From Actinomycetes bacterium (lineage in GTDB: Bacteria; Actinomycetota; Acidimicrobiia; Acidimicrobiales; Bog-793): DNA of 64,000 bases. Where the stretch lies: assembly GCA_021838945.1 (NCBI GenBank), contig JAKCCH010000001.1, positions 7,974-71,973 on the forward strand, given 5' to 3'. Below, in pieces: positions 30,654-43,700 of the stretch (positions are counted from its first letter, which is position 1; every line of letters begins with the position of its first letter). A program made the position numbers and the translations under genes. The notes under the pieces were generated by a model. It saw nothing but the letters and a program-made list of their open reading frames with translations, had not been told where the DNA came from and made no database searches.

Positions 30654-33600
30654 TCAGCCGGGCGCGATGCCGACCACCTTCGAGCCCGGCCGGGAGAAGG
30701 AACCGATCCGCTTCGCCGATCCGAACCCGTAGACGACGCCGTTCGCCGAGACGAGCCAGTAACCCGTGCCGTGCGGCCCTTCAGCCATCCCGGTGACCGG
30801 AGACTTCGGAGCTGTGCGCTCCTCGCCATAGGACTTCGCCGTCCCGAAACGGTAGACCTTGCCCGTCGACGTCGCGATCCAGTACCCGGTCCCCTCGGCA
30901 TCCGGCACGAGTGCCACGGCCTTGCCGGAGAGCTGCGCCGGCGACTTGAACGACTTCACGTTCCCGAAGTGGTAGACGGCACCGTTCGAGGCGAGGAGCC
31001 AGTACCCGGCGCCGGAGGGAGCCTCCGCAACGCTCACGATGGGGTACTTCGGCGCCTTCTTCAGATCGCCATGCGACTTCGCCGTCCCGTAGGCGTACAC
31101 GATGCCCTTCGACGTGACGAGCAGATAGCCGTCACCCTTCGGGGCAGCCGCGATCCCGACGACGGCCGAGCTGAGCTTGGTCGGGTGGCCGCGGGCCTTG
31201 GCCGCGCCGAACGCGTAGACCTGCCCGGTCGAAGTCGCCACGAAGTAGCCGTGGCTCAAGAGCGAGCCGGAAGCCGGCGCCAGAGCGGCGATGCCGACCA
31301 CCGTCCCCGAGGGCCGCGGCGAACCATACGGCAATGCCGACCCGAAGCTGGCCACCTTGCCCTTCGCCGTGACCAGCCAGTAGCCGGGACCGGTGTTGGG
31401 CACGACTTTCAGCGAGAGCGCGGTCGTGACGGTGCTCGCGGGTGTGTCGGAGTCGGAGACCTTGACGCTGAAGCCGTAGGTCCCGGTGTGAGTCGGCACT
31501 CCTGAGATGAGGCCGGCCGACGAGAACGAGAGCCCCGGAGGCAGGTGGCCGCTCGTGAGCGACCAGTGGTACGGCGCGACTCCACCGGTCGCCTGCAGCG
31601 TTCTCGAATAGTGCAGCCCGATCGTTGCGTTCGGCAACGTCGAGGTCGTCACCGCCAGCGGTCCGGCGTAGGTGAAGCGATCGGCGGACGACGTCACAGA
31701 AGACCCGTCCGGGCTCGTCACGGTCACGTCCACGGTTCCCGAACCCGGCGGTGCCGTCGTCTCGATCTGCGTGTTCGACTGCACCACGAAGCTGATCGCC
31801 GCCGTCTTTCCGAACAGCACGCTTGTGGCGTAGTCGAACCCGGTCCCGTCTATCTCGATGAGCGAGCCACCGGCCGAAGTGCCGGCGTGGACTGACAGAC
31901 CCGTCACCGTCGGTGGCGAGATGTAGGTGAACTGGTCCGATGTGCCCGTCGCACTCGTCCCACCCGCACCGGTCACCGTCACGTCCACGGTGCCGCTCCC
32001 CGCCGGTGCCACGACGTTGAGAGTCGTCGAGGACACGAAGCTCACCGACGTAGCCGCGGTCGATCCGAACGCGACCGTCGAGGTCGGCGAGAAGCCCGTG
32101 CCCTCGACCGAGACCGTCGTGCCGCCCTTGGCTGGCCCGGTCGATGCGGAGAGCCCGGTCACCGTCGGTGGCTGCGGGTTCGGCTCCGACTGACACGTCA
32201 TCACGAGCGTCAGCCCGTCCTGTGGCGGTGGCACGTCGAAGGGAGACGTGACGACGTCGCTGACCGAAGGCTGGCCGGGCGCGTAGCAACCCGTCTTCGA
32301 GGCTTCGATCTCGTACCAACCGGGGACCACGTTCCACGCGAACTGCCCTCCGGCGTTGGAGATCTCCGGGTTCGTCGAGGGCTGCGTGACGACCGATCCC
32401 GATGGGATCGCCTGGTACGGCCCTGCTGCGCCACCGGACGCCGACCCGAGGATCGTGACCGTCGCCCCCACGATCGGGTTCCCCTTGTCGTCGAGCACCG
32501 TTCCGGACGGGTCGATGTACATGTTCCAGAGCTTCTGGAGGAGGTTGAGCGACGCGCCGAGAGCGAGGTCCATGATGTCGGTCGGCACCTGTGCGACAGC
32601 ACAGGCACCCCCGATGATGCCGCCCGGCTGGGCCGAGGAGCACCACATCGAGAAGGCCGTGAGGGCGATCCCGCCGACCGGCCCGAGAGCGAAGTCGAGG
32701 AAGCTGCTCTCGAGGGAGCTGTCGGCCATGACCTCCGCGAGCGTGTCACTCAGGCTCCCGAAACCGCCCGCGAAGTCCTCTTCCTCGGCGATGTCGCTCG
32801 CGAAGACGTCGCCGTTCATGAGCGACATGAGGTTGTCGCCGATGGACAAGCTGTTGCCGATCCAGTCCGTGCTGCCGTTCCATTGCAGCACCGCCGTCCA
32901 GTTGCCGCTGTTGTCCGGCGGGGTGTTGCCCTGCGTCACCGCATACGTCGCGGAGCTCGAGAGCGACGAGAGGACGGCGCTCGGGTCCGGCATGGTGCCG
33001 CCGAGCCCCTCCGACAGCGGTGGCGCGTTCGAGATCGACTGCGCCGGAGGCGCATCGCAGAAGGAGAGTCCCGAGGTCGGACACGACGTCGGCGTGCCGG
33101 TGCTCGGCGGGGTCGGTATCTGCTGAGGGGTCGACGGAGTCGGCGCCGTCGCCGAGTAGGCGAACTGGTCGGCACTCGAGGTGGTGCTCGTGCCCCCGCT
33201 CGTCTCGACGGTGACGTCGACGGTGCCGGCGCTCGAGGCCGGCGGCACGTAGGCGATGATCTCCTGATCGTTGACGACGCTGAAGATCGAGCGTGTCGAC
33301 CCGAAGAACACCTGCTGGGCGGTCGTGAATCCTGTGCCGCTGATGAGAACTGTCCCTCCGCCGGACACATTGCCGCTAGCAGGTGCCACTCCGGTGACGG
33401 AGAGGTAGGTGAACGTCGCGAGCGAGCTCGGGGACGTCGTTCCCGACGGCGTCGTCACGGTCACCGACACCTGGCCGGAACCGGGCGGGCTTACGGCTGT
33501 CACCTCGGAGTCGGACACGACCGTTACATCGGCGGCGGCGGCGCTTCCGAAGTGGACGGCGGTGGCCCCGGTGAAGCCGTGGCCGAAGATCGTCACCTTC

Positions 33601-36600
33601 GTGCCGCCGGACGTCGGCCCGGCGTAGGGCAGCACTGCCGAGAGCGGGGCGCAGTACACGAACGGCGCCACGGTGACGTTGCCGTGCACGGGCGCAAGCG
33701 GCGGGATGGAGCCGGTGTAGCTGCCGGAACCGGGCGGGCTCTCCGTGAGAGGGACGTCGCGCACGATCGTCGTCCCGGTCTGGGTGTCGGTGCCCTGGAG
33801 GACGGCATCGGCCATCCCTCCCGGGCAACCGGTCACCGTGACTGTGGACGCCGACCCCCAGAAGATGGTCGGCACTCCGCTCGTCTGTCCGTTCACGCTT
33901 ACGCCGGACGGGATCGTCGCCTCCGGCGCCATGTCGACGACGATGCCGGTCGCACTCGACCCGGCACTGACCGTCACAGGACCGTACGCGGCCGCCTGGA
34001 GCGCCGAGGAGCTGCCGGGACCGCCCATAGGTGGTGGGGTCGCCTGGAGCTCGTAGGTCCCAGCAGGCACGGCGATGGAGAACTGGCCGGTGGAGCCCGT
34101 CGTCCCCCCGGACACGCACTGACCACCACTCGTCGGGCACGCCTCGACCATGACGCCGCTCACGGCGGACGTCGAGCCGGCGTTCGTCGTCTCGGCGGTA
34201 CCGGAGATGGCGTCCCCGGACAGGTTCGGAGCGGTGAGCGAGACCGGCACGAGGTCCGAGGACGTCCACAACTCGGCCGGCTCACTCGAGATGACCGGCG
34301 GGTTGGTCACACCGGTGAGGGTGACGACCACCGAGTCGCCGGCGTTCACCGTCGTGTGGGTGGTAACCGTCACTGCGGACCCGTCCGCCGCGATGGACGC
34401 CGGATCGCACGACGAAGAGCGGTTCCTCGTGGTGTCGTCGACGGTCGCGCACCACGAACCACCGTTGTTGCCGAACGCGGTTCCCGCCGGGGCGAGAAGG
34501 GTCACGGTGCCCGATCCGTTGGCGAGCGCTCCGGTGGAAGACGCGGTGAACCCGACCGAGTACGTGACACCTGACTGGCCGACGGCGCCGGAGGAAGTCT
34601 CGAGGCTCCCGGACGCCGGCGTGCCGGCAGCCACGAAGGGGACCGCGTTGCTCACCGCAGGAGTCGTGTCCGAGCTTGTGGCTACCGACATCGAGTCCCC
34701 GGATCCGGACGGCGGGTTGGTGACGCCTGCCATCTCGACGACGAGGGAGTCGCCGGCGTTGATCGTGAACCCGGACGGCACGATGAAGACCGCCGCTGCG
34801 CCCCCGGCGAACAGGCTCAGGTTGTCGACGCAGCTCACCGAGTGCGTGTTGGTCGTATCCGTGACGGTGTAGTCGCAGTTGTTCCCCGAGAGGCGGGTAC
34901 CGGGGGCGCCGAGCAGCTCGACGACTCCTTCGCCGTTCGCCATCTCACCTGTCCCCGATGCGGTGAACTTCAGCGTGTAGCTCACGTTGGCGGCTCCCGC
35001 TGCGGTGGAGGAGACCGCGAGGGCCGGCGTCGAGACGGAGCCCGGCGTTGCCAGCGCCACCGAGGCCGAGGCAGCGACCGGGTCCGACGACGTCGACACC
35101 CCGATCGAATCCGGCGTCGTGGTCGGGTTGGTGGTTCCCGTCACCACGACTTGGACGCTGTCGCCCGGATTGATCGTGAAGCCCTCGTTCGTGGTGATGA
35201 CGACGGTCGAGCCGCCGTCGAGGACCTGCGGGCTCGACGCGCAGTTCTGGCTGTGCTGGGTCGTGACGTCGGTGACCGTGTAGTCGCAGCCGGTTCCGGG
35301 CCACTGCATACCGGCGGACCCCTGGAGCTCGATCCAAGCCTGCTGCCCGAGAGCGCCGGTCGAAGAGGCGGTGAAGCCGAGAGACGCAGTGACGTCCCCG
35401 GCACCGGCCGAGGCGTCGGAGAGGGTGGCGGAGACGCTCGACGGGGCGACGGGGGCCGTCAGCGACGCGCTCACCGCTACGGGTGCGGAGTCAGCCGTCG
35501 TCCAGAGCTCGAACGAGGCCGAGCCGGGCGTCGAGCCGGTGATGTCCGACGGCGGGTTGCCCATCCCGACGATCGCGACCTCGACCACGTCCCCTGCGGC
35601 GATGTCGAGGCCGTTCGGGGGAGAGAAGCTCACGATCTCCCCGGATGCGTTCACCGACAGGTTCCGGACGCAGTTGGCGGAGTGGAGGTTCGTCAGGTCG
35701 GTCACGGTGTACCCGCAGTTGTTGCCGGGGAACGTGACGCCTCCGCTGCCCACGATGGAGACGAGGTCGTTCGGACCGTCGAGAGCGCCAGTGGCGGACG
35801 CTGTGAAGCCGAAGGTGCCGGTCACCCAGCCGGCGCCCGCAGCCGTGGTCGAAAGAGACACCGATGGGCTCGACACAGACGAGCCGCTCGAGAGCGTGAC
35901 CGGCGACGAGGCGACGGGGACCGTGTCGGTCGAGGTCCACACGCTGACAGCAGCCGACGAGGCATCCGGATTGGTCATTCCCGGCAGCGTCACCTGCACC
36001 TGATCGCCCGGACGGATGGCGAAGGCGTTCGTGGAGACGGTGAGCTCGTCGCCGACCCAGGAGTCCGACAATCCCGAGACGCAGCTCGTGCTGTGCAACG
36101 TGGACAGGTCCGTCACCGTCACCTCGCAGCGGTTCCCCGCGAGGCCGGTTCCCGGCGGTGTCTCGATGACGATCCCGCCATTCGGTTGGATCCCACCGGT
36201 GGAGGAGGCCGTGAACGTGACCGTCCAGGTGGTGTCCGCCCTCCCGGCGATCGGGTCCGACACTGCGAGGCCGAGACCTGACACCGACTGCGCAGAGCTG
36301 AGGCTCAGCGCCGGGGACGCGACAAGGCCGGGGTCAGCGCCCGTGCCGATGGTCACGCCTTCGCTGCTGCTCCCCCCGGTGCTCTGGACGTACGGCGCGT
36401 TGATCTCGAGCTGGTCGCCGGCCGCGCTCGCGAACCCGTTCGTGCCGAACGTGAGGATTTCGCCATGCGGGCCCATGAGGCTCGCATGCGCGCTGTCGTT
36501 GCAAAGCTGCCAGGAGGCTCCGCTCGTGACGTCGGTCATCGTGTAGTCGCACATGTTCCCGTCGCCGAAGACCAGGCCGGACGAGAGCTCGATCGTCACC

Positions 36601-39600
36601 GGATTGCCCGCGGCTGCAGCCGTGGTCTCCGTCCAGGAGATCGTGGCGTTCGTCATCAGTGCTCCCTGCGCCACGCTGGCGAGCGAGAGGACCGGCGACG
36701 AGTCGGCGGCCGGTGATGCCCCACCCGTCAAGGAAACGCTGTTGGTGAGCGCGAACACGGTGTCGGAAGCCGTCATCACCTGGAACTGCTGCGACGTGGT
36801 CTTCGGGTTGACGGCATTCCTGGCCAGGATCTCGATCTGGTCCCCGGCGTTGATCGGGAACGGTTCCGTGATGACGAGGACGTTGTTGTCCACGCCGACG
36901 CCTAGACAAGTCGTGCTGTTGCTGGTCGTGATGTCATCCCACGTGTAGTCGCAGCCGTTGTTGGACCAGGACGTCCCCGGCACCCCGACGATCGTCACCG
37001 AGCTCGGGGTGTTTCCCGCAACGGCACCTTGGCTGGAGGCGGTGAAGTCGATCGTGTCGGTGACGCTGCTAGCGCCTGCCGCCGCTGACGAGAGAGAGGC
37101 AGAGGCCGCCGAAGGGGACACCGGGGCTGCGAGAGTGACCGCCGGAGCCGCTGCGGGAACCAGATCCGAGTTCGTCGAGACCGACAGGTCCTCGGTCGCC
37201 AGTGTGGTGTTGACCGCTCCGGTGATCGCGACGGAGACCGTGTTGCCTGCACTGATCGCGAACTGCGGCATCGCGATGTCGACGGTCGAGGGCGACGGGA
37301 AATTGAGGATGAGGCACTTGGAGGCGGTCTTCGTCGTCACATCGGTGACCGTGTAGTTGCACCCGTTGCCCGGGAACGACGTACCAGGCGATGCCCGGAG
37401 CTCGATCGCGCCGTCGCCCTGCGACGCATAGCTGCCTAACCCCGTCGTGGCGACGAACGTCGCCGTGTCGACGATGCCTGCAGCACCCTCCACCGGCGTC
37501 GACACGCTGAGCGACGGGCTCGTCACGGATGTACCGGTGGAAAGAGAGATCGAGCTCGACGTGCTTCGCACCGTGTCGGAGGAGGTCCAGACGGTGAGCT
37601 TCTGTGTCGAACCCGGAGGGTTCCACCCACCGATGATGGAGAGGGACACCGTGTCCCCGGCGTAGACGGTGAAGCCACTCGGCAGGGGGATGTCGACCGA
37701 GCTCCCGCCTTGGCCGATCGAGACGGCTCCGAGACAGCCGCTCGACGTGGTCGTGGTGACGTCCTCGATCTCGTAGAAGCAGTTATTCCCTCCCGGGAAG
37801 TTGGTACCCGGAACACCCTGTACCTCGATCGCTCCTGAGCCGCCTTCGAGAGCTCCGTCCGAAGAGACTTTGAACGTGACGGATTCAGTGACCCCGCTGG
37901 CCGCGCCGACGGCCGGGGTGACGGTGGCCGAGGAGAGCGAGACTGCCGAAGCCGCAGCGATCGTGACCGCCGAGGTCGTCACCGGGACGAGGTCGGACGA
38001 CGTCGACATCGTGACCGCAAGGCTCCCGGCCCCGGGATTGGTGACGTTCGTGACCGTGAGGATGACTTGATCGCCGGCACGGATGGCCAGCGGGACGGTC
38101 ACCGTGACACTGGACACCCCGTTCGAGATGCCCGGCGAGCATCCGCTCAGGCGCTGCGTGGTGACGTCGTCGAACTGGTAGTCGCAGCGGTTTCCCGGGA
38201 AGGCCGTCGGGTAGGTGCCCGCAAGCATGACGGTGCCATCGCCCGATGCGAGGCTCCCGATCGACGAGGTCGTGAACTCGAGGGTCATCGTGACCCCGGA
38301 TGCCCCCGCCGCCTTGCTCGAGAGCGTCAGCGCCGGCGAGGCAGGGGTCACCGACGTCGGCGCTGCGAGCGCCACCGACGTCGAGGCCGGCACGGTGTCC
38401 GAATCCGTGGAGACCGACAGGGTCATCGCCGCCACGGTCGGGTCGAGCACGCCGGACACCGTGAGCTGCACCTGGACACCCGCTGCGATGGACAGGTTGT
38501 TCGGAAGCGACACGGTCACGGCCGAGGAACCGCTCGGGCCACCGGCCGAGTCGAGGTTGGCACACCCGGTGCTGCCCGTCGACTGATCGGTGACGGAGTA
38601 CCCGCAATTGGCAGAGCCGGGGAAGGCGGTTCCCGAAGGACCCATGAGCGTGATCGCGCCGAAGCTCGGCTGGAGCGCACCGTTGGACGAAGCCGTGAAG
38701 GCGATCGTGTCCGTGACCTCGCTCGCGCCCTGCGCCGTGGTCGACACGACCAGGCTCAAGCCACTGACGCTCTGCGGCGCAGCCAGGGTGACGGCCGGTG
38801 AGGTGGCAAAGATGCCGTCCGAGACGGTCGCGACCGAGATGCTCGTGCTCGCGAGATCGGGGTTGGACACGTTCGTCGCCGTCACGGACACGGTGTCGCC
38901 CGGATTGATCGCCACGCCGGAATAGACGGTCATGATCGACCCGTCTCCCGCGAAGCTTGCGGAGTTGCAGTTCCCCGAGCTCTGCCCGGTGGTGAGATCG
39001 TCCACGGTGTCGCACTGACCGCCGGCGTTGAACACGGTCCCGACCGGCGCGACGAGAGTCACTCCGCCGCCGCTCGGCAGCCCGCCATCAGAGGACGCCG
39101 TGAAGCCGACCGTGTAGGTGGTTCCGGTCGCTCCCTCAGCCGTGGTGGAGAGTGCGCTCGACACGTTGCTCACCGAGCTCGTGATCCCAGGGGTACCGCT
39201 CAGCACGACCGTCTGGGTCTTCGCGGCCAGTGAGTCCGAGGAGTCGTTGAGGCTGAACTGCTCGCTGCCTGCCGACGCGTTTGTCACTCCGGACACCACG
39301 ACGTTGAGGTTGTCCCCTCCCGAGGTGCTGACCGACGGTGGCAAGGTGAAGCTCGCCGTGTTGCCGCCGTTGCCGACCGTCAAGGACCCGACGCAGTCAC
39401 CCGACTTCCCCGAGGTCACATCCTTCACCTCGTACTGACAGGCGGTCGACGGGAAAGTCGTGCCGCTCGGCGCCGAGATCGAGAACGTGCCTTCGCCGCC
39501 GACGAGCCCGCCGTTCGGCGAGCTGTCCAAGCCGAAGCTGTACGTCACGCCCGAAGCCTGACCGACGAGGCTCGACAAGCTCGCGGTGGCGTTCGCGACC

Positions 39601-40127
39601 GCCTGTGGTGGCGCGATGGTGAGCGCAGCCGACGGCGCGGCAGTCGTGTCAGACGAAGTCGAGACCTGCACCACGTCCGATCCGGCCGGCGGGTTCGTGA
39701 CACCGACCGCCGTGACGGTGACGGCGTCTCCGGCGCCGATGGCGAGAGCGCTCGGGAGGGTGAGGGTCGCTTCGCTCCCGCCGTTGGCGACGATGACGGT
39801 CGGGCAGTCAGCCGAGCTCGTCTCCGAGTTCGTCGTCGTGTCGTCGATGGTGTACGCGCAGCCCGTCGACGGGAACGACGTCCCAACGGCCGCGGACAGG
39901 GTGACCGTCCCGGACCCGCCGGCAAGCGAGCCCGAGGACGACGTCGTGAACGACACTGCATAGGTGACGCCGGTCGCCTGACCCGCAAGGCTCGTGAGGG
40001 CGGGCGTCACGACCGTGACGGTCGACGCTGCGGCGGTCGTCGATGGCAGGACCGCGATCAGGCCGGCGACGGCCAATGCCGCCCCGGCGCGATACAGGTG
40101 ACGTCGTACAGGACCAGACCCTCGCAT
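30654..40127 (-). CDS. giant secreted multidomain surface protein (3157 aa)
   Basis: An uninterrupted 9.47-kb ORF starts at ATG 40127 after agggggttaggac. Its signal peptide is MRGSGPVRRHLYRAGAALAVAGLIAVLPSTTAAA. The domain order is 14 Cys-pair modules, carboxypeptidase-regulatory-like segments, 4 IPT/TIG-like domains, an He_PIG-like Ig domain and C-terminal GYW...FG repeats. I see no LPXTG motif and no C-terminal TM anchor. Confidence 0.9.
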   Translation of the reverse strand: MRGSGPVRRHLYRAGAALAVAGLIAVLPSTTAAASTVTVVTPALTSLAGQATGVTYAVSFTTSSSGSLAGGSGTVTLSAAVGTSFPSTGCAYTIDDTTTNSETSSADCPTVIVANGGSEATLTLPSALAIGAGDAVTVTAVGVTNPPAGSDVVQVSTSSDTTAAPSAALTIAPPQAVANATASLSSLVGQASGVTYSFGLDSSPNGGLVGGEGTFSISAPSGTTFPSTACQYEVKDVTSGKSGDCVGSLTVGNGGNTASFTLPPSVSTSGGDNLNVVVSGVTNASAGSEQFSLNDSSDSLAAKTQTVVLSGTPGITSSVSNVSSALSTTAEGATGTTYTVGFTASSDGGLPSGGGVTLVAPVGTVFNAGGQCDTVDDLTTGQSSGNCNSASFAGDGSIMTVYSGVAINPGDTVSVTATNVSNPDLASTSISVATVSDGIFATSPAVTLAAPQSVSGLSLVVSTTAQGASEVTDTIAFTASSNGALQPSFGAITLMGPSGTAFPGSANCGYSVTDQSTGSTGCANLDSAGGPSGSSAVTVSLPNNLSIAAGVQVQLTVSGVLDPTVAAMTLSVSTDSDTVPASTSVALAAPTSVTPASPALTLSSKAAGASGVTMTLEFTTSSIGSLASGDGTVMLAGTYPTAFPGNRCDYQFDDVTTQRLSGCSPGISNGVSSVTVTVPLAIRAGDQVILTVTNVTNPGAGSLAVTMSTSSDLVPVTTSAVTIAAASAVSLSSATVTPAVGAASGVTESVTFKVSSDGALEGGSGAIEVQGVPGTNFPGGNNCFYEIEDVTTTTSSGCLGAVSIGQGGSSVDIPLPSGFTVYAGDTVSLSIIGGWNPPGSTQKLTVWTSSDTVRSTSSSISLSTGTSVTSPSLSVSTPVEGAAGIVDTATFVATTGLGSYASQGDGAIELRASPGTSFPGNGCNYTVTDVTTKTASKCLILNFPSPSTVDIAMPQFAISAGNTVSVAITGAVNTTLATEDLSVSTNSDLVPAAAPAVTLAAPVSPSAASASLSSAAAGASSVTDTIDFTASSQGAVAGNTPSSVTIVGVPGTSWSNNGCDYTWDDITTSNSTTCLGVGVDNNVLVITEPFPINAGDQIEILARNAVNPKTTSQQFQVMTASDTVFALTNSVSLTGGASPAADSSPVLSLASVAQGALMTNATISWTETTAAAAGNPVTIELSSGLVFGDGNMCDYTMTDVTSGASWQLCNDSAHASLMGPHGEILTFGTNGFASAAGDQLEINAPYVQSTGGSSSEGVTIGTGADPGLVASPALSLSSAQSVSGLGLAVSDPIAGRADTTWTVTFTASSTGGIQPNGGIVIETPPGTGLAGNRCEVTVTDLSTLHSTSCVSGLSDSWVGDELTVSTNAFAIRPGDQVQVTLPGMTNPDASSAAVSVWTSTDTVPVASSPVTLSSGSSVSSPSVSLSTTAAGAGWVTGTFGFTASATGALDGPNDLVSIVGSGGVTFPGNNCGYTVTDLTNLHSANCVRNLSVNASGEIVSFSPPNGLDIAAGDVVEVAIVGMGNPPSDITGSTPGSASFELWTTADSAPVAVSASLTAPVAPSSVSATLSDASAGAGDVTASLGFTASSTGALGQQAWIELQGSAGMQWPGTGCDYTVTDVTTQHSQNCASSPQVLDGGSTVVITTNEGFTINPGDSVQVVVTGTTNPTTTPDSIGVSTSSDPVAASASVALATPGSVSTPALAVSSTAAGAANVSYTLKFTASGTGEMANGEGVVELLGAPGTRLSGNNCDYTVTDTTNTHSVSCVDNLSLFAGGAAAVFIVPSGFTINAGDSLVVEMAGVTNPPSGSGDSMSVATSSDTTPAVSNAVPFVAAGTPASGSLETSSGAVGQSGVTYSVGFTASSTGALANGSGTVTLLAPAGTAFGNNGGSWCATVDDTTRNRSSSCDPASIAADGSAVTVTTHTTVNAGDSVVVTLTGVTNPPVISSEPAELWTSSDLVPVSLTAPNLSGDAISGTAETTNAGSTSAVSGVMVEACPTSGGQCVSGGTTGSTGQFSIAVPAGTYELQATPPPMGGPGSSSALQAAAYGPVTVSAGSSATGIVVDMAPEATIPSGVSVNGQTSGVPTIFWGSASTVTVTGCPGGMADAVLQGTDTQTGTTIVRDVPLTESPPGSGSYTGSIPPLAPVHGNVTVAPFVYCAPLSAVLPYAGPTSGGTKVTIFGHGFTGATAVHFGSAAAADVTVVSDSEVTAVSPPGSGQVSVTVTTPSGTTSPSSLATFTYLSVTGVAPASGNVSGGGTVLISGTGFTTAQQVFFGSTRSIFSVVNDQEIIAYVPPASSAGTVDVTVETSGGTSTTSSADQFAYSATAPTPSTPQQIPTPPSTGTPTSCPTSGLSFCDAPPAQSISNAPPLSEGLGGTMPDPSAVLSSLSSSATYAVTQGNTPPDNSGNWTAVLQWNGSTDWIGNSLSIGDNLMSLMNGDVFASDIAEEEDFAGGFGSLSDTLAEVMADSSLESSFLDFALGPVGGIALTAFSMWCSSAQPGGIIGGACAVAQVPTDIMDLALGASLNLLQKLWNMYIDPSGTVLDDKGNPIVGATVTILGSASGGAAGPYQAIPSGSVVTQPSTNPEISNAGGQFAWNVVPGWYEIEASKTGCYAPGQPSVSDVVTSPFDVPPPQDGLTLVMTCQSEPNPQPPTVTGLSASTGPAKGGTTVSVEGTGFSPTSTVAFGSTAATSVSFVSSTTLNVVAPAGSGTVDVTVTGAGGTSATGTSDQFTYISPPTVTGLSVHAGTSAGGSLIEIDGTGFDYATSVLFGKTAAISFVVQSNTQIETTAPPGSGTVDVTVTSPDGSSVTSSADRFTYAGPLAVTTSTLPNATIGLHYSRTLQATGGVAPYHWSLTSGHLPPGLSFSSAGLISGVPTHTGTYGFSVKVSDSDTPASTVTTALSLKVVPNTGPGYWLVTAKGKVASFGSALPYGSPRPSGTVVGIAALAPASGSLLSHGYFVATSTGQVYAFGAAKARGHPTKLSSAVVGIAAAPKGDGYLLVTSKGIVYAYGTAKSHGDLKKAPKYPIVSVAEAPSGAGYWLLASNGAVYHFGNVKSFKSPAQLSGKAVALVPDAEGTGYWIATSTGKVYRFGTAKSYGEERTAPKSPVTGMAEGPHGTGYWLVSANGVVYGFGSAKRIGSFSRPGSKVVGIAPG
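30657..31388 (-). repeat. six C-terminal repeats of about 40 aa (GYW[LI]V..G.V..FG.A...G), beta-propeller-like
   Basis: The six units are GYWLVTAKGKVASFGSALPYGSP, GYFVATSTGQVYAFGAAKARGHP, GYLLVTSKGIVYAYGTAKSHGDL, GYWLLASNGAVYHFGNVKSFKSP, GYWIATSTGKVYRFGTAKSYGEE and GYWLVSANGVVYGFGSAKRIGSF. Confidence 0.7.
34215..40022 (-). repeat. 14 tandem protein modules of about 135-140 aa with a conserved Cys pair (diverged at DNA level)
   Basis: The recurrent pattern is ...G(A/V)T(Y)...F(T)ASS.G.L..G.G.V.L....GT.FP....C.Y.V.D.T.....C....V....A.......I.AGD.V.V...GV.NP. Cys-pair examples are CAYTIDDTTTNSETSSADC, CDYTVTDVTTQHSQNC and CDYTVTDTTNTHSVSC. Confidence 0.8.
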
Positions 40128-40233
40128 GTCCTAACCCCCTGCCTGAGCACGATCACTCGTGACCGAATCGGACTAGCGCAAAGCTGCCGCGCGATTCCAG
40201 AAGGCAAGACGCGCGCCCTTGACGTGCCGCCCC

Positions 40234-41961
40234 TCAGCTTGGAGAGACGGGGGAGGCAAGCGCGGCGGCGATCTCACGGATCGAGGCCAGCCGAGCCGAC
40301 ACGCTCTCCCGCACGTCGGCATCGAGGTCCTGCCGCGACTCGAACGCGCTGTTCGCCTCCTCGAGCGCCGCCCGGGCGAGCGCCAACACCTGGCTTCTGC
40401 CGGCTGCGAAGGCGACGGCTTCGACCTGCTCGTCCTCTTCGCGCAGTTCTGTCGCGAGGCGCTCCGTCTCGCGAGCCGCTGCGCGAGCGAAGACGTCCAT
40501 GCCGACCATGGCGGCTGCGGGATGCCCGAGCGCGACCGCAAGGTCGATAAGCGAGCGCGGCCGGTCTGCAAGGACATAGGCGAGTGACGCGACGACCATG
40601 AGCGACCCGAGGGCGGCGCGTCGGTCCCGGGCCGAGAGATGCTGGCGGTTCGCCGCCAGCAGGATCCCGGCAGGGGCGATCCCGTAGGTCCCCTGGAACA
40701 GGTGACGGCCGAACTGGTCCCGCCGCACCGAGCAACCTCGCAGGCAGATCGCTCCCTGGAGCACGGCAAGCAGAGTGGCCGTCATCTGCGAGCTCCGCGC
40801 CGACGCCTCCTGTGCCCGCCCCAGGTTGGCGAGCCCGCCTGCGGCGAAGGCGGCGGAACACAGGAGCGCCTGCGACATCGGGAGGGCCCCGTCCGTCGTA
40901 CGGGTGGGCATGAGCGCTGCCCAGGCTCCGAAGAAGAAGGCCGGAGGTGCCGGATTGAAACGGTCGACGGTCGCAGCGGGGTCCGCCGGTACCTCGATCA
41001 CCTCGTCGTTCACGAGAAGGGAGAAGGCACGTCCGGGCCGTGTGCCAAGCGATGCCCCTCGGAGCACCTCGACCGTCATGCGGCCGCGCAGAGCTCGCTC
41101 TTCGAGCAAGTCGGCCAGCGCCCGCGCCTGATGCCCCGTGAGCAGGGTTGTCCCGTCGCCCTCTGCCACCGCGACGTCGACGTAACCGTCGAGGTCTGGG
41201 TGGTCGTTGTGTCGTTGCTGCCAGAGGCGGACCGCTGAGTCGAGGAAGACGGCGTGCTGCCGGGCCTGTTGGGCGAGGCTGTCCCGCCACCCGGCACGGA
41301 CTTTGTTCAGGGCGGAGTCGGGGTCGTCCGCCTCGAGCAGGATGGCGACGGGCTTCAGCTGATCGACGATCGTGCTGGCTCCCATCGCCACGTCGTGCTG
41401 GCCGGCGAGGAAGGCGCGGACCCGCTTCGCGGCGAGCTCCGCTTCGTGGATCTCGAGCGCACGCTGGAGACGGCGGCGCTCGCCACGGCGCACAGCCATG
41501 CCACCGATGACGGCTCCGACGTGTGGCACCCCCTGAACCGGGTCGGGGCCCTGACCGGTCACCGAGCGGGCGACGCTGGCGACGGCCCCCGCAAGCAGGG
41601 GCACGACCAGACCACGAGGCCCGTGCGCGACGCCGGCCTCGAAGTCCATCGCCACGAGCCCCGTGAGAGCAGTGGTGAGGTCCGCTTTCGCGGGCCCGGC
41701 CCAGAGGGCGATGTCGGCAAGGTCGATCGCGAGGCGCCTGGCGAGGGAGAGCCTCGATCGGCGAATCGCGCGCCACTCGAGCACGTCGAGGGTGCCGGCA
41801 GCAGCGAGGACAACCGCGCGCAACCGCATTGCGGAGTGTTTCCGGATCGCGGCCAGCTGCAGGCCGCGGGCGAGGGCCCGGTAAGCGGCATGGATCCGTG
41901 CCGAGTCGCGAGGGGCGAGAGCACCCGGCCCGGACCAGTTGGACCAAACGCTGCGTCTCAT
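40234..41961 (-). CDS. polytopic membrane protein with central degenerate histidine-kinase-like (DHp-like) segment and C-terminal coiled coil
   Basis: ATG at 41961 (MRRSVWSNW) forms an ATGA overlap with the stop of the upstream receiver gene, giving 575 aa. Hydrophobic segments sit on both sides of a soluble core of about 200 aa. That core contains AAKRVRAFLAGQHDVAMGAS, which resembles a HisKA_3 H-box; the His codon is at 41395-41397. I see no N or G boxes. The track start at 42114 is rejected. Confidence 0.6.
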   Translation of the reverse strand: MRRSVWSNWSGPGALAPRDSARIHAAYRALARGLQLAAIRKHSAMRLRAVVLAAAGTLDVLEWRAIRRSRLSLARRLAIDLADIALWAGPAKADLTTALTGLVAMDFEAGVAHGPRGLVVPLLAGAVASVARSVTGQGPDPVQGVPHVGAVIGGMAVRRGERRRLQRALEIHEAELAAKRVRAFLAGQHDVAMGASTIVDQLKPVAILLEADDPDSALNKVRAGWRDSLAQQARQHAVFLDSAVRLWQQRHNDHPDLDGYVDVAVAEGDGTTLLTGHQARALADLLEERALRGRMTVEVLRGASLGTRPGRAFSLLVNDEVIEVPADPAATVDRFNPAPPAFFFGAWAALMPTRTTDGALPMSQALLCSAAFAAGGLANLGRAQEASARSSQMTATLLAVLQGAICLRGCSVRRDQFGRHLFQGTYGIAPAGILLAANRQHLSARDRRAALGSLMVVASLAYVLADRPRSLIDLAVALGHPAAAMVGMDVFARAAARETERLATELREEDEQVEAVAFAAGRSQVLALARAALEEANSAFESRQDLDADVRESVSARLASIREIAAALASPVSPS

Positions 41962-42704
41962 TCGTGCCGCGAACGCTCGATCCGCGCCACTGCGCTCCAG
42001 AACTTCCTCAGCTGGACGATCGAAGGAGCCTCGAGGTGCATCGCCGGGTTTCCCGTCGCGTTCACCGGCCTGAGGCCATGACGCCCTGACGCGAGCAGGC
42101 GGACCCGGCTCCACCAGCGCGACCGTTCGCCGTGAGGATCTGCCTTCTTGCGTGCGCCTGCGTGCAGCACGGACTCGAGGTCCTCGGCCGCCAGCCGGTC
42201 GACTATCTCGTTCACCCGCGTCGCCGGTGTGATGCCGACGCCGGGCGGAAGGCTGCTTCCCGGCGGGCGCTGGAGCCTCCGGTGATCATCCGGGCTGACT
42301 ACGACCGAGACCAGCTCCTGCTCGGTCATGCCTTCGTCGCGGGGGTAGAAGAAGTCTGCACCCGCCTCCCACATGCGGTGTCGCAGCCCTGGATGCAGGT
42401 ACTGGCCCGTCAGCACGACAACGGTCACGGCGACCTGCAGTGAGCGGATCGACCTCACGACCGCCACGCCGGGGAACTGGTCGCCGCTCCGACGCGCGTC
42501 CGATGCGTCGACGACGGCCACGTCGACGCCTGTCCACTCCTCGCGCCACGACAGCGCCTGCGCGTGGTCGACTGCAGCGACGAGGTCGATCTCGGGGGCA
42601 CCGCGGAGCACAGCCGCCGTACCGGCGCGCATGACCGGGTCGTTGTCCACGACGACCACTCGTCGCCGCTCTTCGGGCAGACCCATCTGCACAGGACTGG
42701 TCAT
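41958..42704 (-). CDS. receiver (REC) domain protein with uncharacterised C-terminal domain
   Basis: ATG at 42704 follows aaggggg. The protein has VVVVDNDPVMR, VAVVDASD (phospho-acceptor Asp context) and VVVLTG, but GADFFYPRD sits where the conserved Lys is expected. I recognise no HTH in the C-terminal 110 aa or so. Confidence 0.65.
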   Translation of the reverse strand: MTSPVQMGLPEERRRVVVVDNDPVMRAGTAAVLRGAPEIDLVAAVDHAQALSWREEWTGVDVAVVDASDARRSGDQFPGVAVVRSIRSLQVAVTVVVLTGQYLHPGLRHRMWEAGADFFYPRDEGMTEQELVSVVVSPDDHRRLQRPPGSSLPPGVGITPATRVNEIVDRLAAEDLESVLHAGARKKADPHGERSRWWSRVRLLASGRHGLRPVNATGNPAMHLEAPSIVQLRKFWSAVARIERSRHE

Positions 42705-42939
42705 GAGCGACGCCGCCCCCTTGCCGAGGCTCAGGATAGCGCCGGATCCGACCCAGATGCTGGCGCCACGGATCACTCCACCGAGAAGAAAACCGATGCC
42801 CACCACCGTCCAACGGCAGCTCGGCCGACTCTGCTCCAAAGCCACGCTACCGACGCGGGCTCGCCGTCTTCGACGCCGATGCCTTCGACGCGCTGCGGGT
42901 CTTCGGAGCAGGACGCGTCGAGGTTCGGCGAGACGTCCG

Positions 42940-43700
42940 TCGCGCCGCGCGTCCGGCAAACAGGTAGCCCGGGACGCCCCGGTCGAACTCGAGGAATGCG
43001 ACGACGGTGTCCATTCTCTCGATCCTGGCGGCGAAACGCTCGCGATCGATAAGGCGCAGCCGAGTCGGAGGTGGCTGAGAAGCCGGGCGCAGCTCTGGTG
43101 GCAGCTCGTCGGTGGTCTCCGAGCTCAGCATCGAGTTGCCGTCCTCGACCGTCACGACGTGGCGGACCCCGAACCTCTCGTAGGTACCGGCATAGCGGGA
43201 CAGATCGAGGTCGGGAGGGCTGTCGGGTGGCTTCAGCGGCTCGGCCATGTGCACGCCGGCCAGCTCTTCGAACAACCAGCGGGCGAGGTCGCGCCACAAC
43301 GATCCTCCGCCCGTCGAGTTGGTCAGGAGGGCGATCACCAGTCCCTCGTCGGGGAGGCACTGCAGAAACGACAGCTGCCCGATCGTCCCGCCGCCGTGAC
43401 CGATCACGCGCTTGCCGTCCCACTCCTCCATCAGCCAACCGAGACCCATGCTCGCCGGGGGCGCTGTAAAGGTTGTGGCTGTCGACCTGCGTCTCTTGCA
43501 TGGCCCGGGCCGCCCCGGCCGACAGGACCGAGGTCTCGTCCGGTGCCACCCCCTCATCCAGGTGCATCGGACGTACCTCGCGAGTCCGTCGTCGTCTCCA
43601 CTCCCGTGTCGACGCTGAGGACCCCGGTCGCGAAGTCGAGGAGCTCCTCCCCCCGTTTGCCCTGTTCGGAAGGCGCGCACCCAATGAGTACCGTTCACAT
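42940..43700 (-). pseudogene. serine hydrolase (beta-lactamase-related) gene remnant, 5'-truncated and frameshifted
   Basis: The C-terminal half is readable: ...NLYSAPGEHG in one frame, then MGLGWLMEEWDGKRVIGHGGGTIGQLSFLQCLPDEGLVIALLTNS... in another, with the shift near 43445-43460. The N-terminal half that should carry the SxxK motif is missing where the ABC exporter gene starts at 43701. Confidence 0.6.

Follow-up and report, generated by a model that had tools for sequence, protein, structure and literature searches.

Giant surface proteins built from Ig-like repeats are common, and many adhesins carry near-identical repeats in variable copy number. Fibrillar-adhesin-like proteins are extracellular and have a stalk of repeated domains, and about half of those detected computationally lack a known anchor (PMC8286594). 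Beta-propellers of the RCC1/BLIP-II group are mostly bacterial and include a secreted binder (PMC9218822). Here, we describe a giant protein encoded in a 64,000-nucleotide (nt) stretch of DNA from an uncultured actinomycete (Acidimicrobiales; assembly GCA_021838945.1, contig JAKCCH010000001.1, positions 7,974 to 71,973), which we refer to as the window. The gene is a single open reading frame (ORF) on the minus strand of the window (30654-40127) with 3157 codons and a stop codon.

We propose, with a probability of roughly 55%, that the product is a giant fibrous cell-surface protein tethered to the wall non-covalently via a propeller at its C-terminus. Structure models and domain matches support a secreted mosaic fibre of tandem beta-sandwich domains. 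The propeller is a candidate cell-wall anchor and probably explains why a standard anchor is absent; we read it this way because its homologs are fused to peptidoglycan enzymes and because it is present in a phage tail-region protein. In the proposed mechanism, the protein would be exported via Sec by means of a cleavable N-terminal signal peptide and would fold oxidatively outside the cell into ~22 serial beta-sandwich domains, with predicted disulfides in the modules. The C-terminal propeller would then bind peptidoglycan or a wall-linked polymer non-covalently, replacing LPXTG or SLH, as the domain fusions suggest. Because the propeller would bind the wall, the C-terminus would be wall-proximal and the module array would project outward as a fibre tens of nanometres long. 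Consistent with a wall-proximal C-terminal end, PASTA lies close to the C-terminus in other proteins that share the modules.

In order, the protein consists of 14 N-terminal modules, a first prealbumin-like segment (preA), a domain that we call X, two TIG domains, a 214-amino acid (aa) stretch made up of a Pro-rich linker and a region called mid, a second prealbumin-like segment (preB), two more TIG domains, an He_PIG domain, and six short repeats. About 22 predicted beta-sandwich domains are thus arranged in series, 14 of them being the N-terminal modules. The TIG domains together score E 5.6e-34 (Pfam PF01833; 116.4 bits over four stretches), which places IPT/TIG above threshold, and they cover ~10% of the protein. 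A first-pass annotation, made from the sequence without database searches, had listed one uninterrupted 3157-aa ORF, a signal peptide, 14 Cys-pair modules, two prealbumin/carboxypeptidase-regulatory-like segments, four IPT/TIG-like domains, an He_PIG-like domain, and six GYW..FG repeats. Every one of these elements exists. The order given was slightly off: X and mid had been omitted, and the two prealbumin-like segments are not adjacent, since X, the first TIG pair, and the linker with mid lie between them.

A C-terminal propeller as candidate wall anchor

The six C-terminal repeats are ~41 aa long and carry GYW (four repeats), GYF, or GYL. They follow the pattern VVGIA...GYWLV...G.VY.FG, with the VVGIA strand missing from repeat 1. 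The protein ends in KVVGIAPG, and this C-terminal strand completes blade 1, a "velcro" closure. AlphaFold2, run on a 39-row alignment of the repeats, returned a closed six-bladed propeller with 18 strands (predicted local distance difference test [pLDDT] score 92.9; predicted template modelling [pTM] score 0.90). When this model was used as a Foldseek query, only generic WD40-like propellers were matched, at template modelling (TM) scores of 0.5-0.67. At the sequence level, the propeller matched RCC1_2 with 20.6 bits (E 3.8e-4; Pfam cut-off 22), and one homolog did so with E 2.7e-6. A propeller profile matched the RCC1-like domain (RLD) of HERC2 weakly (E 0.009), and BLIP-II was not among the matches. 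The single propeller sequence had no match in the PDB even at E 10.

We found at least 1389 homologs of the propeller, mostly proteins of 300-450 aa. Those that are named come mainly from Acidimicrobiales and other Actinomycetota metagenome-assembled genomes (MAGs), with single entries labelled Gemmatimonadota and Candidatus Saccharimonadales. The 120 best homologs were scanned with Pfam for fusion partners and inspected at their N-termini. The partners were YkuD (23), NlpC/P60 (9), CAP (8), transglycosylase-like (4), 3D (4), M23 (2), CHAP (2), VanY (1), PG_binding_1 (1), and AMIN-like (1) domains. A peptidoglycan-related partner is present in 47 of the 120, comprising 45 proteins with enzymes of seven classes and 2 with PG_binding_1 or AMIN-like domains. 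The propeller precedes the enzyme domain in some proteins and follows it in others, and a signal-like N-terminus is present in 84 of the 120.

A propeller protein is also encoded by the soil phage GX15bay. This 1304-aa protein contains two propeller copies (phmmer E 3.3e-48), and its gene is located directly after that of a minor tail protein and before genes annotated as chitinase and esterase. It had no Pfam match at E ≤ 1e-3, and the deposited label "glycoside hydrolase family 25" (GH25) was not reproduced. We found no propeller on plasmids. The propeller repeat, both in the giant protein (aa 3118-3139) and in the homologs P0103, P0116, P0032, P0050, and P0037, spuriously matches ribosomal protein L24e models, below threshold; the JGI name "ribosomal protein L24E", which some of these secreted proteins bear, is a propagated mis-annotation.

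Predicted export signal and absence of standard anchors

The N-terminus carries the basic residues R2, R8, R9, and R13, followed by AGAALAVAGLIAVL and then AAA/S, where the slash marks the predicted cleavage site. This start, MRGSGPVRRHLYRAGAALAVAGLIAVLPSTTAAA/S, resembles a type I signal peptide, and its AAA/S site is preceded by a 14-residue hydrophobic core. The N-terminus is also the sole strong Kyte-Doolittle (KD) peak of the protein (KD 1.82 over 19 aa, 2.74 over 12 aa); two weak hydrophobic peaks (1.67) lie within modules, and none lies near the C-terminus. The segment therefore looks like a cleavable signal peptide. A Tat signal was considered on account of the motif RRHLY and set aside, as the resemblance is weak.

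Searches for the standard means of attachment were negative. The regular expression LP.T[GAS] had zero matches in the whole protein, the C-terminus of which reads ...SKVVGIAPG, and a Kyte-Doolittle scan detected no C-terminal hydrophobic or transmembrane segment. Pfam and NCBIfam scans gave no match to SLH, LysM, PG_binding, or GW (for SLH, none even at E ≤ 1), no known adhesive domain, and no known S-layer protein family at E ≤ 1. The first-pass annotation had reported no recognisable anchor and had suggested an adhesin or S-layer-associated fibre. LPXTG, SLH, and a C-terminal transmembrane segment are indeed absent, but the GYW..FG propeller now stands as the best candidate anchor. Likewise, the secreted beta-sandwich fibre holds up, whereas neither a known adhesive domain nor SLH was detected to specify an adhesin or an S-layer association.

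The gene is intact and conserved

Because the window is rich in GC (64-73%) and contains many long spurious ORFs, we checked the codon-position composition of the giant ORF. GC at the third codon position (GC3) is 0.84-0.92 throughout all sixteen 200-codon blocks. The values at the first and second positions (GC1 ~0.56, GC2 ~0.61) are as expected for a Ser/Thr/Gly/Ala-rich protein, these four residues making up ~51% of the sequence. The exact protein and four variants were found in independent assemblies, which include NCBI GCA_027411195.1, three ENA assemblies, and one Logan run. All five are 3157 aa long and free of indels, and the four variants have 1-16 substitutions. The most divergent variant has 37 nucleotide differences, corresponding to 18 synonymous and 16 non-synonymous codon changes, which indicates purifying selection that is not strong.

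An ortholog is represented by a second species-level cluster (P0121, P0281, P0285). It is 3147 aa long, 59% identical, and collinear over ~2990 residues. A genome-collection scan gave one match, a truncated copy with 65% identity in a MAG titled "Actinomycetes bacterium", and a metagenome scan using the ortholog N-terminus gave none. Collectively, these sequence comparisons confirm that the gene is real, intact, and maintained.

Fourteen modules form a predicted beta-sandwich stalk

Cys pairs recur every ~137 aa, from C90/C108 to C1893/C1907, and define 14 modules. When a hidden Markov model (HMM) was built from the modules, it recovered 14 matches of 112-157 bits each. Pairwise identity among the modules is 22-47%, lower than the 44-66% between each module and its positional counterpart in the ortholog, which has exactly 14 modules too. 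Since positional counterparts are closer than modules within the protein, the array is old and stable. The first-pass annotation had proposed comparing module copy number among relatives and predicting structures domain by domain; the ortholog keeps all 14 modules, and confident models were obtained for the module and for the repeats.

AlphaFold2 predicted a nine-strand beta-sandwich from a 14-row module alignment (pLDDT 92.6, pTM 0.87). In a Foldseek search of the PDB, this model matched the collagen-binding domain of Cna, the pilins EbpB, RrgA, PilB, SpaA, and BcpA, as well as Sgo0707 and SdrC (E 1e-4 to 5e-3, TM score 0.42-0.55, identity 8-15%). At these values, the modelled likeness to Cna, pilins, and Sdr proteins is one of shared fold class, not of family membership. 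We counted the cysteines in 840 modules from 151 proteins: 316 modules have none, 13 have one, 509 have two, and 2 have four. Because two cysteines are gained or lost together (two or none, almost never one), each module is probably stapled by one disulfide. The two cysteines flank a predicted hairpin (model positions 59 and 74).

The profile of the 14 modules had no significant sequence match in Pfam or the PDB. Against 1.84 billion cluster representatives, it detected 1096 proteins at E ≤ 1e-3 (282 at E ≤ 1e-30), which carry arrays of 3-14 modules. A module-profile search of a word-indexed database returned three short fragments only, and no modules were found in phages. In 145 of the 150 best module-family proteins, no more than 80 residues separate the N-terminus from the start of the array, which never lies behind another domain. 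The modules are accompanied by TIG, fn3, Big_3_5, ASH/HYDIN-type Ig, He_PIG, or CarboxypepD_reg domains and, occasionally, by PASTA or other propellers; none of the members scanned has a catalytic or known adhesive partner domain. In public databases, members are named "hypothetical protein", [quoted passage not shown], or "beta-lactam-binding protein with PASTA domain", and IPT/TIG is, besides the PASTA name, the sole domain label that members receive. In P0125, P0149, P0160, and about six other members, the C-terminal ~400 aa consist of three ~130-aa domains in tandem, which follow the pattern P.R.(C)DTR...GYLTVYPAG...SNLNF...VDVxGYF. These domains had no match when P0125 and P0143 were scanned against Pfam, and they may represent one more of the modules that can occupy the C-terminus in this family.

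A conserved central cassette

The segment from preA to preB is the part of the protein best conserved in the ortholog (69-75% identity, compared with 44-66% for the modules and 57% for the propeller). Identity is 69% for preA, 74.5% for X, and 71% for the C-terminal 100 aa of mid. Approximately 20 of the 150 best module-family members share the arrangement of modules, ~90 aa, X, TIG, TIG, a variable stretch of 105-260 aa, a domain with an IDPSG motif, TIG, an optional further TIG, and a variable C-terminus. If the protein has a specific activity, this conserved cassette is where it most likely resides, as judged from sequence conservation.

Within the cassette, preA (about 1970-2060) has no Pfam match and a weak PDB match to 8bdw, the collagen-binding domain of a collagen adhesin (E 0.039). 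X occurs in 14 of the 150 members, each time ahead of a TIG pair. The preB segment, with its YIDPSG motif, matches CarboxypepD_reg (PF13620; E 6.2e-7) at 30.1 bits, just below the cut-off of 32.3. The motif IDPSGTVxDxxGNPxxGATVT, which includes an Asp-Pro bond, is nearly invariant at the start of preB in 25 relatives including P0121-P0290. We rejected an Rhs-like DPxGL cleavage motif as an explanation for IDPSG, since YD repeats are absent and the motif forms the opening strand of a prealbumin-like domain.

On five metagenome contigs (L007-L011), a prealbumin-like domain, X, and an IDPSG-type prealbumin-like domain are contiguous in proteins without modules. Because X directly abuts the preB-type IDPSG domain in these proteins, the TIG-TIG-mid segment is an insertion into an older unit, and the three-domain prealbumin-like/X/IDPSG unit is mobile in its own right.

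The mid region proper (aa 2376-2540; 32508-33002) combines an acidic, helical-looking stretch with two moderately hydrophobic segments, each containing a Cys. It has no Pfam or PDB match. A query consisting of mid and preB matched four proteins, all via preB alone, so mid has no detectable relatives beyond orthologs. At the corresponding position, immediately ahead of the IDPSG domain, a strongly hydrophobic segment of 40-65 residues that resembles a transmembrane hairpin (KD >2) is present in P0289 and in 6 of 16 cassette relatives. Other relatives have a Cys-rich, non-hydrophobic segment or nothing at this position. The mid region of the giant protein never reaches the KD cut-off of 1.5, its hand-estimated peak being ~1.3.

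One relative (L013, 5476-11218, plus strand) has seven modules, X, TIG, TIG, and then a prealbumin-like domain, TIG, TIG, and He_PIG, with no propeller. In two assemblies, a frameshift immediately ahead of the IDPSG domain divides it into two called genes. The gene adjoins a TrwC relaxase and an integrase. We dropped the idea of a natural two-gene split at this point, as the frameshift lies within one reading frame and is possibly an assembly indel.

Alternative explanations

Several points weigh against a wall-tethered fibre. No solved homolog of the propeller was found, and the fold search gave generic matches only. The fusions to wall enzymes could also reflect a regulatory or protein-binding role, and the count of 23 YkuD fusions overstates the number of independent events, as many of the entries are near-identical. 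Among the 150 best module-family proteins, the ortholog alone combines modules with this propeller; the combination is therefore lineage-specific. The array sits directly behind the signal peptide (145 of 150) with no distinct tip domain, unlike in classical adhesins. Pfam did not confirm the GH25 label of the phage propeller protein. Finally, the type of host envelope was read solely from the names of related records.

The alternative that fares best is that the propeller is a ligand-binding head for a foreign glycan, the wall of another cell, or a protein, while the giant protein is held otherwise (for example by an uncleaved signal-anchor or by another protein) or released. Beta-propellers are generic binding scaffolds, consistent with the generic fold matches, and the weak RCC1_2/HERC2 similarity points to the RCC1/BLIP-II group with its secreted protein binder (PMC9218822). 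In the phage tail protein, the propeller would bind a foreign cell surface, and the module family varies in its C-terminal domains, a variability that is frequent among adhesive heads. However, the AAA/S site after the hydrophobic core is canonical, the partner acts on or binds the producer's own wall in 47 of 120 propeller homologs, and no other anchor is detectable in the giant protein. We consider a binding head unlikely, although it retains some weight.

A second alternative places an internal hydrophobic hairpin of mid in the membrane, with the module arm and the C-terminal arm both outside. The hydrophobic segments of the cassette relatives and P0289 would suit such a topology, and in the giant protein two hydrophobic stretches flank a short loop with C2496/C2509 in a segment that is 71% conserved in the ortholog. 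The giant protein's own segment nevertheless contains Asp, Gln, and Lys and stays below the 1.5 cut-off, its estimated peak lying under the usual transmembrane thresholds, and other relatives have a Cys-rich, non-hydrophobic segment or none. A hairpin anchor is therefore improbable.

Equally improbable, in our estimation, is a surface coat rather than an adhesin, with the array running alongside or over the wall to give a protective or hydrophobic layer comparable to an S-layer or BslA. The modules account for 61% of the protein, which has no tip domain; one relative matches BslA weakly (E 6.3e-5); and a DUF2808 protein belongs to a cyanobacterial exoproteome (PMC10957091). Yet the giant protein has no SLH domain, BslA is absent from the top 50 fold neighbours of the module, and nothing points to self-assembly.

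A pseudogene, a repeat assembly chimera, or a non-coding high-GC ORF can be dismissed: spurious long ORFs are abundant in high-GC DNA and the relative on L013 is interrupted by a frameshift, but codon-position GC is uniform, the length is the same in five assemblies, modules only 22-47% identical make repeat collapse or expansion in assembly unlikely, two domains have confident fold models, and a full-length ortholog exists.

Implications of a possible propeller anchor

The giant protein is otherwise ordinary; its interest lies in the candidate wall anchor and in two large domain families without useful annotation that it exposes, the stalk module (~1100 clusters) and the propeller (at least 1389 proteins). 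At present, propeller proteins bear the label hypothetical or, in error, "ribosomal protein L24E", and defining both families would improve surface-proteome annotation in soil and sediment metagenomes. For one of the missing anchor classes, the propeller offers a concrete, testable candidate, and it does so in an actinobacterial lineage that is mostly uncultured and has received little study. If it does bind the wall, it could be used to target enzymes or labels to these cells.

A broader proposal is more tentative, and we hold it somewhat short of even odds. The GYW..FG propeller may be a previously unrecognised wall anchor or targeting domain that is specific to Acidimicrobiia-like Actinomycetota and serves hydrolases, L,D-transpeptidases, a phage tail protein, and the giant fibre, and the 14 modules may represent a new disulfide-stapled stalk family of ~1100 clusters. 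Together, they would describe how surface display works in a large uncultured lineage in which these proteins have no LPXTG or SLH.

Genomic neighborhood and feature coordinates

A 106-nt gap separates the giant ORF from the upstream gene on the same strand, and no promoter or terminator matches were found near the stop codon of the giant ORF. The upstream gene product (575-626 aa) has hydrophobic segments and a coiled-coil-like C-terminus and had no Pfam or PADLOC match; a receiver-domain-like ORF precedes it. A thiolase gene also neighbors the giant ORF, and PADLOC gave no defence matches. Elsewhere in the window, another large secreted protein (1076 aa) is S/T/A/G-rich and carries a signal peptide and two C-terminal ~110-aa repeats that match CE2_N weakly; it is otherwise unannotated. 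In a 1194-aa protein, a double zinc ribbon and an adenylate/guanylate cyclase domain occur together with an AAA_16 ATPase and TPR repeats. Coordinates are given in Table 1.

Table 1. Parts of the giant protein gene, neighboring genes, and the phage propeller protein. Coordinates are window positions unless stated otherwise, and all parts of the giant protein gene are on the minus strand; aa, residues of the giant protein.
Feature	Coordinates	Strand	Basis
Shine-Dalgarno-like AGGGGG, 7 nt before ATG	40135..40140	-	read from sequence
Signal peptide, aa 1-34; basic n-region, AGAALAVAGLIAVL core, AAA/S site	40026..40127	-	sequence and hydrophobicity
14 Ig-like "M" modules, aa 35-1966, ~135 aa each, one Cys pair each	34230..40025	-	HMM, AlphaFold2, fold search
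preA, first prealbumin/CnaB-like segment, aa 1970-2060, C1997/C2004	33948..34220	-	weak PDB match
X, Ig-like domain, aa 2061-2162, C2101/C2159	33642..33947	-	recurrence in family
TIG 1 and 2, aa 2163-2326	33150..33641	-	Pfam PF01833, E 4.9e-12 and 7.7e-14
Pro-rich linker and mid region, aa 2327-2540, C2496/C2509	32508..33149	-	ortholog conservation
preB, prealbumin/carboxypeptidase-regulatory-like, aa 2541-2650, begins YIDPSGTVLDDKGNPIVGATVTI	32178..32507	-	PF13620, E 6.2e-7
TIG 3 and 4, aa 2651-2822	31662..32177	-	Pfam PF01833, E 6.3e-18, two stretches
He_PIG Ig-like domain, aa 2823-2905	31413..31661	-	PF05345, E 2.1e-12, 47.7 bits, cut-off 24
Predicted six-bladed beta-propeller, aa 2906-3157, proposed wall anchor	30657..31412	-	repeats, AlphaFold2, homolog fusions
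Upstream gene, 575-626 aa	40234..42114	-	
Receiver-domain-like ORF	41958..42959	-	
Second large secreted protein, 1076 aa	18101..21331	+	
Cyclase/AAA_16/TPR protein, 1194 aa	47310..50894	-	
GX15bay propeller protein	L015 1639..5553 (MK557849.1 42901..46815)	+	sequence search

Comparison with known systems

Like the fibrillar adhesins and pilins of Gram-positive bacteria (Cna and SdrC of S. aureus, Sgo0707 of S. gordonii, EbpB/RrgA/SpaA/BcpA), the giant protein is predicted to be a secreted single chain of tandem Ig-like beta-sandwiches. The likeness of its modules to these proteins is at the fold level only (TM score 0.42-0.55, identity 8-15%). Unlike them, it has no LPXTG/sortase signal and no known adhesive domain, its stalk begins directly after the signal peptide, and a disulfide is predicted in place of isopeptide bonds. 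Its repeats are old and divergent (22-47%) with a count fixed at 14, rather than near-identical and variable. With respect to sortase-anchored MSCRAMMs and pilins in particular, the LP.T[GAS] search found no C-terminal sorting signal. Of the four features by which fibrillar-adhesin-like proteins are recognised (PMC8286594), the giant protein has two, a predicted extracellular location and a tandem-repeat stalk; a known adhesive domain and a known anchor were not found.

The modules also approach the uncharacterised family DUF2808 (PF10989). Whole-protein scores against DUF2808 are 65-110 bits for relatives in the module family, and a further 38 members include 14 with a match at E ≤ 1e-5, whereas the giant protein reaches only 14.1 bits (E 0.05; cut-off 25.3). 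Two of its 14 modules give E ~0.05, and no single stretch passes alone in the four relatives that were scanned individually. The modules are thus distant relatives of DUF2808, with no formal membership.

With RCC1/BLIP-II propellers, the C-terminal domain shares a ~41-aa repeat, a closed propeller, and the weak RCC1_2/HERC2 matches. The two differ in that RCC1/BLIP-II propellers have seven blades, compared with six in our model, and the RCC1_2 match is below the Pfam cut-off. To our knowledge, fusion to peptidoglycan enzymes is not a described feature of RCC1/BLIP-II proteins.

The closest parallel in usage is with wall-binding modules (SLH, LysM, PASTA, SH3b, PG_binding_1, choline-binding, and GW). 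The propeller, a proposed wall binder, is unrelated to all of these in sequence and in fold. Like them, it is a terminal, non-catalytic domain shared by wall hydrolases or transpeptidases and large surface proteins, and it is swappable with PASTA in sister proteins of the module family. LysM, SH3b, and SLH show the same pattern of usage, and the propeller, too, is repeatedly joined to a catalytic domain that acts on peptidoglycan, in 45 of its 120 best homologs, of which 84 have a signal-like N-terminus.

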